From Escherichia phage DK-13: a stretch of 64,000 nucleotides of DNA. Shown piece after piece: positions 298-48,253 of the stretch; position 1 is the first letter of the stretch; every line of letters begins with the position of its first letter. The stretch is taken from sequence record MT611523.1; one strand, written 5' to 3'. A program made the position numbers and the translations under genes. The notes below the pieces were generated by a model. It ran no database searches. It saw only the letters and a program-made list of their open reading frames with translations, and was not told where the DNA came from.

Positions 298-3200
298 ATG
301 ATGAGTGTTAAAGCCCCTTATGTAACCAGCTTACGGATTGATAAACTATCTGCTAACCAGGTTAGCATAAAATGGGATAATGTTGGCGCCAACTTTTATT
401 ATTTTGTTGAGATTGCTCCGACAAAAGAAAATGGTGTTGCTATTCCAGAAGAAAATCTGTTATGGAGGAATTTAGGTTATACTCCAGACAATGAATGGTT
501 CGAACAAGATTTTATTCGTCCAGTATCATTTTACAAAATGCGTGTTGCTGTTGCAGCAATGGGTTTTGAACAATCTGATTGGGTTTATACCGAAGAATTT
601 GAAACCTTTGCAACTAACGCATACACATTTGAACACATGCGTGAGTTTACATTAACAAATAAATTCATCGAAGAAAAATTCACAAACAATAACCAGGCTT
701 ATATCAACTTTAATAATGATGCAATTATGGCATCGCTGATGTCTGAAGATTTTAGCTTTACTCCTGCTTATTCTCATTTGTCTTCAATTTCAAACTATGT
801 ATTAAAAGAAGACCAATACCATGAAATTCAGGGTAGTATTCAGCCGGTGTGTAACGATGTTAATCGTACGATGATTGCTGAACTCGGTGGTGTACTGTAT
901 TTGTTTGAACGATTCCAGACAACTGTCAAAGTCTCCAATGATAAAGGGCAGAACTGGTATTATGTAAAATTGTTTAATGACCGTATCGGTAACCCAGTAT
1001 CGCGCACAATTTATTATCAATCAGATACGACAACTTATGTACTCGGATATGACCGAATTTTTTACGGTCGTAAATCAAGTGACATAAGATGGTCTGCTGA
1101 TGATGTTCGATTCAGTTCTCAGGATATAACATTTGCAAAAATTGGTTCGGATATCAATCTCGGATTTGATATTGAAATATTTGGCACATACGCAAGACTC
1201 CCGGCATATATCTCAACAATTGCCGAAGCAATTACTACGACCGATTCCATGATTTACGTTGCTGGCCGCGACCGTGTATACAAAGCTAAATCTTCTGATG
1301 CTCCAATTGATAACGACCCTAACTCCCCAACATTCGGTGAAAAATTATTTGAAGCTGGATATAGCACAATAAGCGGCAATCCAAAAGCTGTTTGTTACAA
1401 GATGGATTCAATTGACGGTGAAGTATTTGCATTAATCACGGGTGAAGTAAAGGAAGAACGCCAAGACCCGACTAAGCCTGAAAACGTTGTCGATTCATTA
1501 TCAAAGGGCGTTTATAAATTAAATACCGATACCGATACATGGACACGAGTTTTTGGTAATACAGAGGATGAACGTCGCCGTATTGAACATGGTTACACAA
1601 GCATGTCAACTGATGGAATTGAACTTTTTATCAGTTCAAGTAACTTCCGTTATTCCGTTGAGCCAGATACCGAACTCCCTACTAAGTATCCTGAAGAAGT
1701 TAACGAAGCAGTCAAATATGTGTATGATGAACAATGGATACATGACAAGCATTATTTGATGATGAGTTTTAGGTCAAATAAAGATTCAGGTTGGGAAGAG
1801 TTTAAACCTGGACGTATGTCATATTACGCTGAACCGTTCTTTAACTGGTCTCGCCGTGATGATACTCGTTGTTGGATTACCACATCAGACAGAGCTCTGG
1901 TTGTATATAATGACATGCTGTATCAAAAGATTATCGATACCTTTGGTGGTTCATCCCCTGAACGTATTGTACACGAATACTGGAATAAAGGTCAAGTAAA
2001 AGTTACTTCTCCTAACATCGAATTCAATGGCTTTAAAAAATATGCCTCGGGTATTATGTTACATAAAAATACTGGTGAGCTTATTGGTTATTTTGAATTT
2101 GACTATCGTATGCGTGATGAAGTTAGATTAATCTGGAAACCGAAAGAAGTTATGTTCACTGCAGAATTACAGAACCAGGAACATGATATTCCATGGACCC
2201 CGGATAATGATGAACAAGAGAAAGACCCGGACTTGCGTCCTCTTTTAACAAAGATGGTTCCGGATAGTTATTTGCTCCAGGATAGCAACTTCGAAAAATT
2301 CTGTGAATATTATTTGCAGTTTATCAGTGATGGCTCTGGCACATATTATAACAACCTTTTGAACTTGATTCGCAACCAGTACCCACGCGAGGAAGATGCA
2401 TGGGAATACCTTTGGAGTGAAATGTACAAAAGAAACATATATTTGTCAAAGACCAAGCGTGACGAAGTAGTTCGTTTCTTTGAAGCAAGACAGTCTGATT
2501 TTTGGGCAACCAAGGGGACTGAAGCATCCTATAAGTTTTTATTCAAATTGTTATATAATGAAGACGTTGAAATCGATATTGAATCCAAGAACGGAACCGA
2601 GTATGACATAATTGTCGAATCTGATAATATCAGCGAAGATATTGTTGGGCAAACAATTTACACACCAACCGGCCGCAGTAACGTTACCTATATGGAGCGT
2701 GACTACAAACAGGGTAAATTGAGATGGCGTATCACGATTCATAACTTGCTTGGTCGCTTTATTGTTGGGCAAGAAATTAAATCCGAAAGGACTTCCTTTG
2801 AAGGCATGATTGTTCAGGGCGTTCGCGGGAAAGAATTGCTTAGCAACAACATCGATTATATCAACCGAAATCGTTCTTACTATGTAATGACCATTAAATC
2901 AAGTCTCCCGACATCTCGTTATCGTAATGACGTATTGCGATTTGTTCATCCGGTTGGATTTGGATTTGTTGGAATTACATTATTGACAATGTTTGTTAAT
3001 GCTGGTCTGTCATTAAAACATACAGAAACCATTATCAATAAACTGAACAACTATCGTTGGTCGTCGGGTATTCCGTCAGAATGGTGTGACCGTATTGCAG
3101 TTATTGGAGCCGATGGAAACATTGAGCATAATGCTGTTACAGGCGAAGCAGTATATAATATTGCTCCTAACGCAGGTTTACCGTTCCCATTACCGGCAGA

Positions 3201-18676: not shown

Positions 18677-18723
18677 CAGTAAATGTAATTAAGCAGTAAA
18701 CCGTAGAACCATTATACAATGCT

Positions 18724-18731
18724 ATAAATAA
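18724..18731 (+). promoter_or_regulatory. Late promoter TATAAATA within the loop of a 10-bp inverted repeat
   Basis: CCGTAGAACC / GGTTCTACGG arms at about 18701-18710 and 18744-18753. Confidence 0.5.
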
Positions 18732-18811
18732 AAGCATATCATCGGTTCTACGGACTCCTCAGAGCTCCTCCAGCGACCTAAATACATTTATTGATGAATC
18801 ATATTACCTAG

Positions 18812-18819
18812 TATAAATA
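18812..18819 (+). promoter_or_regulatory. Late promoter TATAAATA upstream of gp19
   Basis: Octamer about 50 nt upstream of gp19 start. Confidence 0.6.
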
Positions 18820-18871
18820 CATGCATCAGGGACGCGTTCGCGCGACCTGTGTCTATAAAGAGGATTCCTTA

Positions 18872-27510: not shown

Positions 27511-27599
27511 AATCTCTCACTTTTGATGTTATAAATATCATTATAAATTAGACCCATTATACTTTCTTTCTCTGAAAGGAATTAATAGTCACAAAGGGG

Positions 27600-27640
27600 T
27601 CTAGAACCATTATACCACAATTTTATTTGAAGCAAAAAGG
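27600..27640 (-). promoter_or_regulatory. Middle (MotA-box) promoter upstream of rnlB
   Basis: Minus strand reads TTGCTTCA-N13-TATAAT-GGTTCTAGACCCC (approximate coordinates). Confidence 0.5.
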
Positions 27641-27641
27641 G

Positions 27642-32218: not shown

Positions 32219-32275
32219 ATAAAAAGGCCCCAACCAAAAGGAAGGGGCAAAACCAAAAATGGTTAACAACACTAG

Positions 32276-32443
32276 CTAAATTAAAAGTTGGGTCTCGTTC
32301 AGTTGCTCTTCTGTATTTTCCGTAACTGGCAAACTCTGAACATAATTATAACAGGCGCCCGGATGCACCGGACCTTGGTCTGTATCCACAACCAATGCAG
32401 AATCGATTGGAGTTTTACAGACAACACAAATCTTATCTGACAT
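32276..32443 (-). CDS. Small hypothetical protein (uvsY.-2 position), about 55 aa
   Basis: My own translation, below the ORF-track size cut-off: MSDKICVVCKTPIDSALVVD...; synteny. Confidence 0.4.
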   Translation of the reverse strand: MSDKICVVCKTPIDSALVVDTDQGPVHPGACYNYVQSLPVTENTEEQLNETQLLI

Positions 32444-46562: not shown

Positions 46563-46879
46563 TAGAACCTCATCTGAAAGCCGTGCGATTTAACATTGCC
46601 ACCATAGATGTCAGACGTATTAACTTCACGTGCAGCGCTCGGGTCGATATTGATATCATGGTTGAGCTTAGTGATTGCTAGGGTATCACGACCGTTAACA
46701 GTACGGAATTCTACCGGGCAAACTATATCCGCATAGTTTTTAATGGATTCTTTAGTTGGTTGCTTATCAGCAGGTACACCTGGACCAGCTTTAGAGAAAA
46801 CAACTTCACAGAAATTTTTACGTGTATCAAAGTAAGTAGTCATAAACATAGTATTTTCCTCAAGGGGCTTTCGCCCCAT
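46562..46879 (-). CDS. Hypothetical protein
   Basis: 105 aa ORF; early-type promoter upstream. Confidence 0.45.
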   Translation of the reverse strand: MGRKPLEENTMFMTTYFDTRKNFCEVVFSKAGPGVPADKQPTKESIKNYADIVCPVEFRTVNGRDTLAITKLNHDINIDPSAAREVNTSDIYGGNVKSHGFQMRF

Positions 46880-46934
46880 TTAAGATTAGATATCAAATTC
46901 ATTAAGAACTACATCAAAGATTGCTTCCAGGTGT

Positions 46935-46975
46935 TCAGTATGGAATCATTATGCACTGGACAACCCCTGTTGTAA
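46935..46975 (-). promoter_or_regulatory. Early-type promoter upstream of the 105-aa gene
   Basis: Minus strand reads GTTTAC-N18-CATAATGATTCCATAC, the same downstream element as at 25110-25150. Confidence 0.45.
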
Positions 46976-46991
46976 ACCCTTTATGGAAAAT

Positions 46992-47018
46992 AAAAAAGGG
47001 ACTCCGAAGAGTCCCTGA
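46992..47018 (-). terminator. Hairpin GGGACTC-CGAAG-AGTCCC downstream of the 53-aa basic protein gene
   Basis: Stem-loop with A-run. Confidence 0.55.
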
Positions 47019-47020
47019 AC

Positions 47021-47182
47021 TTATGCTTTCGGCTTACCAAAGCAAGCTGCATCGGCACGCAATACCGCACGAGCACGAGCCTGAAGTTTATCAGTTACCT
47101 GATTGATTCGCTTGTTGGACGCACGCTTGTAACCAGCGCGTTTGGAGGAGCCATCAACAACTTTAACTTCTTTCTTAGCCAT
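47021..47182 (-). CDS. Small basic protein, 53 aa
   Basis: My own translation, below ORF-track cut-off: MAKKEVKVVDGSSKRAGYKRASNKRINQVTDKLQARARAVLRADAACFGKPKA; AAGAGA RBS; hairpin terminator immediately downstream. Confidence 0.45.
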   Translation of the reverse strand: MAKKEVKVVDGSSKRAGYKRASNKRINQVTDKLQARARAVLRADAACFGKPKA

Positions 47183-47479
47183 ATTAAATTCTCTTTAAAA
47201 ATAGAATGCAGGACTTATTGACATTGCCTGCGCAAGCCCTCGAAGGGAACATTAGGTTTCGGATATTTAACGACAGGATAACCATAAACCTCGTCATCAT
47301 ACCAACCACGACTTAGACAGATAACCTTTTTCTGACGCGTGATAGTACAAAATACATTCAAGAGGTACACCATAAAACTGTCGGGGTCTTAAAACTATAA
47401 CGATTCGCAAATCATTAATCAGACAGTTCGATGGCTCCTCGATTTTCTAGCCGCACTAAGGTAGCGAATCACCTAAAAC

Positions 47480-47734
47480 TTACTTCAGGGTTACGACAAA
47501 ATGACGAACAGCTTTACGGGCAGCAGATGCCAGCGGCTTAGCAAATTTCAGTTCATCTTTTGCTTCGAGCACTGCGCGAAGGTCGGTTTGAATCGGGTTA
47601 AGATGTTTGAAATACTGCAGAATTTCCAGTGCTTCGGCTTCAACATCAATAGATGCGCCGTAGTTTTCGTGACCGTTATTCCATGCAGTGCGTTGCAGTT
47701 CAAGAGCGTGTTGTAATTGTTTGTTTAAAGACAT
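47480..47734 (-). CDS. rIII: Putative lysis-inhibition accessory protein RIII
   Basis: 84 aa from internal ATG (T4 RIII is about 82 aa); position adjacent to gene 31. Confidence 0.5.
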   Translation of the reverse strand: MSLNKQLQHALELQRTAWNNGHENYGASIDVEAEALEILQYFKHLNPIQTDLRAVLEAKDELKFAKPLASAARKAVRHFVVTLK

Positions 47735-47905
47735 TTTAGAAGCCTCAATATGAGGTGAATATTTGGTGGACACGTTCTTCTGAATTTCACTTCCTTTCGG
47801 CAAGTCTCTCAGTTGTAGTCCACCGTTTAGGATTAGCTAACCCCATACACCAGCAAAGCTCTGTATGACATCAACCAATCCATATTATTATTTATAACGC
47901 TAATT

Positions 47906-48253
47906 TTACTTATAAAGACAAGGAACAGCTTTATAATGACAGGTCACAAATTTCTGCTTAACTTCTTTAGCCTGCTTAAGTCCCAGAGCAACCAGAGGAT
48001 GTGGAACGTTTGCAATCTTGCCAACCGGAAGAGGAGTCAAATCACCTACTTCACAGAAACCTTCAGGAACATCTGGACCAACCGAAAATACTTCACACAT
48101 CTCCGGGATTTCACCCTGATGAAGTTTTCCGATAACGATACCTGATGCCGTAGTTTCTTCATCACCAGCTTGCTTTGGCTCAGAAACCAAAATAATATAT
48201 TCACCTACTGCTTTAATTGGTAATTCCATATTTAATCCATGTTGTTTGGTCAT
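47906..48253 (-). CDS. gp31: Co-chaperonin gp31 (GroES analogue)
   Basis: [23 protein letters not shown]...[17 protein letters not shown] matches recalled T4 gp31. Confidence 0.9.

Follow-up and report, generated by a model that had tools for sequence, protein, structure and literature searches.

ToxIN systems are type III toxin-antitoxin abortive-infection systems of enterobacterial plasmids, in which the RNA antitoxin ToxI binds and silences the endoribonuclease ToxN. These plasmid-borne systems are widespread, and the pseudo-ToxI of a single Pectobacterium phage, PhiTE, is the only RNA counter-measure to them so far described. The PhiTE study also reported which changes a ToxI repeat tolerates: U9C together with A25G, the loss of one U from the UUU at 16-18, and one A added at the 3′ end leave the antitoxic activity of a single repeat unimpaired; C27G or U28A abolish it (PMC3475682). 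Here we describe the spacer between genes rIII and 30.9 of Escherichia phage DK-13, a T4-like phage of the genus Gaprivervirus (the analyzed stretch of record MT611523.1, 64,000 nucleotides long, is called the window, and all coordinates are positions in it). The spacer (47183-47479, read on the minus strand) starts with a recognizable copy of ToxI, followed by other structured modules; it is probably a conserved non-coding RNA mosaic headed by a ToxI mimic, working as RNA and not as protein. We lean towards the explanation that this non-coding RNA is transcribed together with rIII and has a pseudo-ToxI decoy at its start.

The ToxI-like unit downstream of rIII

The first 39 nt of the spacer form a single ToxI-like unit (pseudo-ToxI; module A, 47478-47440, minus strand), which reads UUUU-AGGUGAUUCGCUACCUUAGUGCGGCUAGAA-AAUCG; its core (47474-47445) is equivalent to ToxI A1-A32 and has a GAAAAU site at its 3′ end. 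When the spacer was searched by BLAST against all complete E. coli genomes, matches were found in plasmids only, at two to four places per plasmid, and were limited to the 44 nt that directly follow the rIII stop; in PLSDB, the same region matched 58 plasmids (including the Pectobacterium plasmid pECA1039), at up to 13 places each. The matched places are tandem 36-nt toxI arrays, directly upstream of genes annotated as type III ToxN/AbiQ family toxin: for example, the array of pDEC4E-2 contains 6.6 copies of the 36-nt repeat AGGTGATTTGCTACCTTTAAGTGCAGCTAGAAATTT, and that of pU90-1 contains four copies of TCTAGGTGATTCGCTACCTTAAGTGCGGGACGAAAA (also 36 nt). In addition, a degenerate ToxI pattern has an exact match at 47474-47444 on the minus strand, with no matches in 100 shuffles.

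Aligned with toxI and the PhiTE pseudo-ToxI, the window unit reads UUUU AGGUGAUUCGCUACCUU-AGUGCGGCUAGAAAAUCG, and the unit of the relative VR7 (AGGUGAUUCGCUACCUUAAGUGCGGCUAGAAAAUCG) has the full 36 nt. From A1 to A33, the VR7 allele is ToxI with the U9C/A25G exchange, UU for UUU, and one extra 3′ A, and it has the native C27, U28, and A29. The window unit keeps C27 and U28 (GGCUAG is retained); its C9-G25 pair replaces U9-A25 by compensation, and pairing is preserved at all three central positions (9-25, 10-24, and 11-23). These central pairs covary: ToxI has U9-A25/G10-C24, the window has C9-G25, and the T4 type has C9-G25/A10-U24. Divergence is greater in the T4-type allele (UGGAGAUUCACUGCCUUAGUGUGAGCUAAAAUCG), whose central stack is still kept by compensation (C9-G25, A10-U24); BLAST found no counterpart of this allele among plasmids. 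Two module A alleles circulate, one near to ToxI (window, VR7, VR20, and APCEc01) and the diverged T4 type (T4, and also Gaprivervirus SP18); the presence of the T4-type allele in SP18 suggests that module A has been exchanged between lineages by recombination. No toxN gene is adjacent, the neighbors being rIII and gene 30.9, so the element would be a mimic and not a toxin-antitoxin locus. As far as sequence comparison goes, we regard the homology of module A to ToxI as established.

Single ToxI-like units were also found by BLAST in about 125 INPHARED phage records from unrelated families, of which only the PhiTE unit is annotated (as pseudo-ToxI), and the ToxI pattern also occurs in 14 IMG/VR contigs. 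For example, the unit of Salmonella phage 7-11 lies between GAAAUUC and GAAAAUG, with a terminator after it; in N4/G7C-like coliphages (74-78 kb) the unit lies behind a sigma-70-like promoter; T5-like Klebsiella phages have two tandem ToxI-like units; and in T4-like Yersinia phages (TG1/phiR1-RT) the unit adjoins rIII. Further unannotated units are present in Serratia phage 92A1 and in one rV5-like coliphage. The pU90-1-type toxI repeats (…GUGCGGGACGAAAAUC…; pU90-1 2004-2147) are almost identical to the PhiTE pseudo-ToxI (2948-3010 of the PhiTE sequence compared), including GAC at positions 27-29, which was scored as inactivating against Pectobacterium ToxN in the 2012 study (PMC3475682); judging from this near-identity, the PhiTE mimic may be matched to a pU90-1-type ToxIN variant.

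Structure, conservation, and transcription of the spacer

Module A is followed by an extended hairpin of 88 nt (module B, 47442-47355, minus strand), with helices GAGG/CCUC, GCCAU/AUGGU, and GAACUGUC/GACAGUUU enclosing AAUGAUU-UGCG-AAUCGUU. Across 19 distinct sequences, its 24-pair nested structure is 99.1% paired, with compensatory double changes at seven pairs; none of 500 shuffles reached the observed values, slid partners were only 26-61% paired, and RNAalifold found the same fold independently. The substitutions are in the stems, and the loops CUGAUUA, AUAGUUUUAAGACCCC, GUA, and UUGAAUG are invariant. The GAGGAG at the 5′ end of the module is half paired. In the window, the minimum free energy of module B is -24.7 kcal/mol (z = -3.69; none of 200 shuffles fold as well); the folding energy of the whole spacer is unremarkable (z = +0.29, sense strand), and only module B stands out. 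Three G-U pairs of module B (two invariant, one predominant) would be A-C on the opposite strand, so that the functional strand is the gene-sense one.

Module D (47295-47255, minus strand) is an H-type pseudoknot: it consists of the hairpin GACGAG(G)...CCUGUC with loop UUUAUGGUUAU, a conserved linker GUUAAAUAUCCGA, and an AACC that pairs with the loop GGUU. Among 18 sequences, 84.8% of the cells are paired vs. 69.5% in shuffles (0/500 as high), the covariation score is 0.43 vs. 0.175, and slid controls gave 41-54%; for the knot itself, a register-corrected count gave 63 of 77 cells paired, a value reached by 10 of 2000 shuffles. The knot helix is swapped wholesale among lineages (GGUU/AACC, UUGGUU/AACCAA, GUAGUU/AACUGC, CAAGGUU/AAUCUUG, and GUGAG/CUCAC); it has only 4-5 bp in the window and T4, where it is weakest, next to a D hairpin of 6 bp. 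We dropped an assignment of module D to the pistol ribozyme or the preQ1-I riboswitch, both of which it resembles: the Rfam models, which include the pistol ribozyme and the preQ1 riboswitches with their similar hairpin-linker-pseudoknot layout, had no match in the spacer at E <= 10. A scan of genome contigs with a module D pattern (14 specified bases) yielded chance matches only and was uninformative, and a metagenome scan with a 17-mer of module B yielded a few new variants amid many chance matches.

The remaining modules are smaller. Module E (47250-47233, minus strand) is the hairpin GUU-CCCU-UCG-AGGG-CUUG, which nearly every relative has kept; its stem varies (CCUC/GAGG, GCCU/AGGC), as does its place in the spacer. 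Module F (47231-47208, minus strand) is the hairpin GCAGG-CAAUGUCAAUAAGU-CCUGC; its stem varies (CGGG/CCUG, CUGG/CCAG) and its loop UGUCAAUAAG is kept. We also considered module F as an intrinsic terminator and rejected it: the loop is 14 nt long, the U-run is 6 nt away, and the terminator scan made no call there. Module C (47354-47299, minus strand) is a variable insert, absent from T4, with a small hairpin CAGA-N9-UCUG; the evidence for it is weak (CAGA/UCUG is replaced by CAGC/GCUG in relatives L012 and L021; fold z = -1.83). In SP18-like relatives, module C is replaced by another element of about 140 nt, element X (GGCAAGUGCAUGCUACCCCGAGG...CUAACGGUGUGCAACAGAUAAGAG), which is absent from the window; it lies about 125-265 nt past the rIII stop in SP18 (L002), and is also found in L006, L011, L013, L019, L022-24, and L028-35. 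RNAalifold, applied to 12 distinct copies, gave element X 42 pairs, 15 of them with compensatory double changes; it has no Rfam match and none in E. coli genomes, and appears to be a multi-helix RNA not described before. None of B, D, and X matches an Rfam family, and all three are candidate new RNA motifs.

Some internal similarity was seen among modules B, C, and D: AGGUUUAUGGU in D (47291-47281) resembles AGUUUUAUGGU in the 3′ arm of B (47379-47369); GGUUAUC(C)UGUC is common, by eye, to C (47335-47315) and D (47290-47273); and a U/A-run followed by the motif WGGUKWU recurs at a spacing of about 44-45 nt (47378, 47333, and 47290). These similarities and the spacing of about 45 nt are hints of an old tandem duplication.

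The 298-nt spacer matches 772 phage records, 576 of which cover at least 80% of the query. The T4 spacer matches at about 74% identity, with indels, and nothing is annotated there between 30.9 and rIII (NC_000866 130541-130784). We compared the spacers from 37 and later 57 loci (about 40 loci were retrieved out of the 772 phage records), and found lengths between about 40 and about 420 nt. Short modules make up the spacer as a mosaic, and their combination, order, and distance to the flanking genes vary among the relatives; for example, the order is rIII, E, D, A, hairpin, 30.9 in Yersinia phage TG1, and rIII, D, A′, X, E, F′ in another phage group. Since they are position-independent among relatives, the modules appear to be autonomous units. 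They are present across the 772 T-even phage records, T4 included, and are mostly unannotated. Modules B, D, and E each occur once in the window and once per T4-like locus, and the idea that they are dispersed repeats was dropped for this reason; B and D were found only at the rIII-30.9 locus of T4-like phages. BLAST found no bacterial counterparts of modules B to F, or of several D variants, in E. coli genomes and PLSDB plasmids; the covariance models of Rfam 15 had no match in the spacer at E <= 10 (with a 1.1-kb query and with the 148-nt 3′ part) or in six relatives at E <= 1; and ARAGORN found no tRNA or tmRNA.

The stretch is an outlier for this genome in its lack of open reading frames (ORFs). 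The longest part of the window uncovered by an ORF of at least 60 aa on either strand is 47107-47479 (373 nt, including the 53-aa gene 30.9); the runner-up has 169 nt (32273-32441), followed by 18677-18820 (144 nt) and 27511-27641 (131 nt), and 3.5% of the window is uncovered in total. Inside 47479-47183, counting ORFs of at least 20 aa, the minus strand has three, of 52, 41, and 37 aa, and the plus strand has one of 36 aa; a second plus-strand ORF of 36 aa (47431-47541) overlaps the end of rIII. An earlier note on this DNA, made from the letters alone, had described 47183-47480 as free of ORFs of at least 60 aa, which the ORF list and the coverage scan of all 64 kb bear out. The two small hairpins it mentioned are our modules E (CCCT-TCG-AGGG) and F (GCAGG-N14-CCTGC), and the 52-aa minus-strand ORF that it credited with a weak ribosome-binding site is indeed there (47373-47215), with ACCCCGACAGTTTT preceding the ATG and no Shine-Dalgarno sequence. 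The similarity to ToxI, the pseudoknot D, and the long 5′ hairpin B are additions to that description.

All genes at the locus are on the minus strand, in the order kept from T4 (cd, 31.2, 31.1, 31, rIII, 30.9), and a 901-nt query around the spacer is 97-98% identical to phages P896, VR25, VR7, and VR20. The upstream gene, rIII (47480..47734, minus strand), encodes a lysis-inhibition accessory protein of 84 aa (phrog_1457, E = 4.7e-42; 100% identical to the VR7 and P896 proteins), and would be read through into the spacer. Downstream, gene 30.9 (47182-47021, minus strand; ribosome-binding region at 47201-47183) encodes a basic protein of 53 aa (phrog_1427, E = 2.9e-26), annotated as 30.9 in VR7 and SP18. 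Our scans found no intrinsic terminator within the spacer and, for the minus strand, no sigma-70-like promoter there or immediately ahead of it; the sole terminator-like site in 46700-48000, and the first downstream of rIII, lies after gene 30.9 (47016-46997, minus strand; AGGGACUCUUCGGAGUCCCU plus a U-run). By eye, and without T4-specific promoter models, no MotA box (T4 middle) or T4 late promoter TATAAATA was seen upstream. Transcription of rIII from early, middle, and late promoters has been reported (PMC9409239). Because the scans found no promoter or terminator in the spacer, the next terminator lies after 30.9, and promoters for rIII have been reported, we infer that the spacer is co-transcribed with rIII throughout infection. 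Beyond 30.9, the window (∼46880-47020) has the 30.9 terminator and an early-type promoter (46976-46948), and then directly gene 30.6; genes 30.7 and 30.8 are absent from it, and close relatives have about 785 extra bases between this terminator/promoter and 30.6 (the 901 query bases correspond to 1685 in P896, VR25, and VR7; the part of VR7 compared is 1487-2292).

Proposed ToxI mimicry and the alternatives

For its function, the earlier note had offered three options: a small RNA, a regulatory leader for the 53-aa protein gene, or a micro-protein. The first holds up as an RNA role, given the covariation-backed structure of modules B and D and the recognizable ToxI copy in module A; a fixed leader is unlikely for most modules, and the micro-protein fails. 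Two checks proposed there had different outcomes: the Rfam covariance models matched nothing, and the comparison of relatives found the RNA structure (B and D) conserved and the 52-aa ORF not.

According to the explanation that we lean towards, the spacer would be an untranslated part of the rIII message that acts as RNA. As infection shuts off host transcription, host ToxI would decay; the ToxI copy made by the phage would then occupy ToxN by molecular mimicry, and phage RNA would be spared from shredding. Failing that, the unit could serve as a seed from which amplification yields an active array, as in PhiTE. Modules B to F would be kept by selection on their structure, as self-contained RNA units (further decoys, or processing/stability elements) and not as a fixed leader, since their positions change between relatives. 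The binding of ToxN by module A and any role of modules B to F are thus predictions from the comparisons above. From its sequence, the chance that the window/VR7 allele has anti-ToxN activity appears about even, and that of the T4 allele lower.

Several points weigh against mimicry. The BLAST E-values are individually marginal (2e-3 to 8e-2). The window unit is one A shorter than VR7 in the loop (UUAAG to UUAG), and so differs from the tested active sequence. There is no tandem repetition: one unit is followed by the first 5 nt (AGGAG) of a possible second, and genuine arrays have 1.9-5.6 repeats. An AAAU-type cleavage site is present 3′ of the unit (GAAAAU) and absent 5′ of it, therefore the unit would carry a long 5′ extension. 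The native 1.5 repeats of PhiTE were inactive and needed expansion (PMC3475682). Plasmid toxIN strongly blocks T2, T4, and T6, which depend on the TifA protein (PMC10853763; bioRxiv 10.1101/2022.04.14.488369); these three phages carry a more diverged module A allele than the window. Finally, nothing links modules B to F to a partner, and searches of plasmids, E. coli genomes, and Rfam found no match to them.

Many of the same observations suit the main alternative, a relic or amplification seed, which we consider possible, though less likely than mimicry. On this account, the ToxI-like unit is a decaying relic of recombination with a toxIN plasmid, having no present anti-ToxN activity, or a stock for rare amplification, and the hairpins and the pseudoknot act in cis: they could block the loading of Rho on 300 nt of untranslated RNA, direct processing or stability through RNase E, RNase III, or RegB, or affect how much transcript reaches 30.9. 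It would account for a single unit without a 5′ processing site, and has a precedent in PhiTE, whose native locus stayed inactive until expanded, and where one escape phage captured toxI by recombination (PMC3475682). The diverged T4-type allele without plasmid counterpart, together with the toxIN sensitivity of T4, points the same way, as do the place of the spacer inside an operon, without a terminator of its own, and the GGAG (a target motif of RegB) that is invariant at the start of module B. However, the unit persists in many T-even lineages, and even the T4 allele, diverged as it is, has kept compensatory pairs, a pattern that favors selection for the ToxI fold; no nucleotide known to be required is missing from the window/VR7 allele; and modules that shift their order and their distance to both neighbor genes are awkward for position-dependent control in cis.

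We consider it unlikely that mimicry extends to the spacer as a whole, making the rIII-30.9 spacer of T-even phages a multi-unit array of RNA decoys. In such an array, the 3′ part of B, C, and D would be highly diverged relatives of one antitoxin-type pseudoknot repeat, with X as a further module; each unit might act against a different RNA-binding defense toxin, the units being expressed from the rIII promoters throughout infection and shuffled by recombination. The idea comes from the short shared motifs at a spacing of about 45 nt and the pseudoknot nature of D, and from nothing else; the searches for bacterial counterparts were negative or uninformative. If true, the spacer would be an RNA-based anti-defense island in the best-studied phage family.

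Less likely still is a leader, or riboswitch-like control of 30.9, with D, E, and F as sensor and expression platform for translation or read-through. As an H-type pseudoknot whose linker is A-rich, module D does have a layout known from small riboswitch aptamers, and in the window E and F are no more than 30-70 nt away from the ribosome-binding site of 30.9. However, even the 148-nt piece has no Rfam match at E <= 10, F has no directly following U-run and was not called as a terminator, and the 30.9 ribosome-binding site is not sequestered in the predicted folds; moreover, the position of D relative to 30.9 varies, from directly after the rIII stop to 250 nt from 30.9 or upstream of the ToxI unit. 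The changing order and distances in relatives are what make a fixed leader unlikely for most modules.

Translation of the 52-aa ORF or of the 41-aa ORF (47309-47184) is very improbable, and this reading appears largely refuted by comparison: the start, frame, and end of the 52-aa ORF are not conserved, its ATG is an arm of a covarying helix, and neither ORF has a PHROG or Pfam match. The ORF is open in close relatives, where P896 has a 48-aa hypothetical protein annotated, but across the relatives the length of the open frame varies between 13 and 67 aa, its C-terminus takes three different forms, and several relatives have no start codon. The start is ATG only in the window and two T4-type spacer variants, and GTG, TTG, or absent elsewhere; an in-frame TAA interrupts the ORF in L022, frame-breaking indels in L008, L012, and L016, and element X in SP18-like phages. 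The ATG (47373-47371) belongs to the AUGGU arm of module B that pairs with GCCAU, and it is ACG in T4 (ACGGU/GCCGU) and GTG in VR7 (GUGGU/GCCAC). We also dropped a split ribosome-binding site, with GAGGAG brought to this ATG by hairpin B (as in T4 gene 38), given the same lack of conservation and covariation as a helix arm. The frame does stay the same between T4 and the window despite a 51-nt indel and two pairs of 1-nt indels; two 1-nt indels between them, seemingly frame-preserving, are bulges on opposite strands of the module D hairpin. Similarly, a peptide-like motif, VVGYPxVKxPKP, recurs when module D is translated, but the changes in this module are compensatory for pairing (GAC/GUC to GUG/CAC; UGG/CCA to UAG/CUA) and, read as amino acids, would be non-conservative (D to V, V to H, P to L), so that the recurrence seems better explained by RNA constraints.

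Public annotations of the locus are inconsistent: the hypothetical protein of P896 lies in the spacer (2601-2747), and rIII of SP18 has 129 aa (2089-2478) vs. 84 aa elsewhere. Both are probably over-calls, and the hypothetical proteins annotated in the spacer of some records should be removed.

Comparison with described systems

Structured intercistronic RNA elements known from T4 include the gene 32 operator pseudoknot and the split ribosome-binding sites of genes 38 and 25. Like the modules of the rIII-30.9 spacer, they are pseudoknots or hairpins in polycistronic mRNAs, conserved among T-even phages; however, they control translation from a start codon that lies at a constant distance, whereas B and D keep no fixed position relative to any start codon and have no sequence similarity to them. 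Modules B and D, and X in relatives, are covariation-supported motifs outside the known families, in genomes that were thought to be almost fully accounted for.

TifA (gp61.4) of T4-like phages shares with module A the presumed target, ToxN, and the phage family, but TifA is a protein, encoded elsewhere in the genome and experimentally tested (PMC10853763; bioRxiv 10.1101/2022.04.14.488369), whereas module A is an RNA and a putative inhibitor. A toxI-like sequence in T-even genomes is mentioned in neither of these TifA papers, and in the open-access literature we found no paper on such a sequence in T-even phages or on the structure or function of the rIII-30.9 spacer.

Compared with the ToxI of ToxIN loci (pECA1039, and pDEC4E-2 and pU90-1 of E. 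coli), the window is identical at 28 of the 32 core positions, the two substitutions form a compensatory pair, and pU90-1-type toxI has the same 3′ GAAAAU site; in contrast to these loci, the phage copy is not tandem and has no following terminator and toxN, and no toxIN promoter. Such a copy makes a testable prediction about host range on toxIN+ strains. The presence of an in-phase ToxI copy after rIII in T-even coliphages, which are classic models, and of units in about 125 phage genomes suggests that RNA antitoxin mimicry is common and not a curiosity.

Module A is closest to the pseudo-ToxI of PhiTE (PMC3475682). Both are phage-encoded, intergenic, sense-oriented copies of the 36-nt ToxI with no toxN nearby, and both carry U9C/A25G, UU for UUU, and the extra 3′ A. 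They differ in that PhiTE has 1.5 repeats in the wrong phase, with GAC at positions 27-29 (inactive against Pectobacterium ToxN), whereas the single unit of the window is in phase and has the native CUA there; it also has a loop shorter by 1 nt, no 5′ cleavage site, and a place among other structured modules. PhiTE is an rV5-like phage and DK-13 a T4-like one, so module A is an element of the same kind in a different and much more studied phage family.

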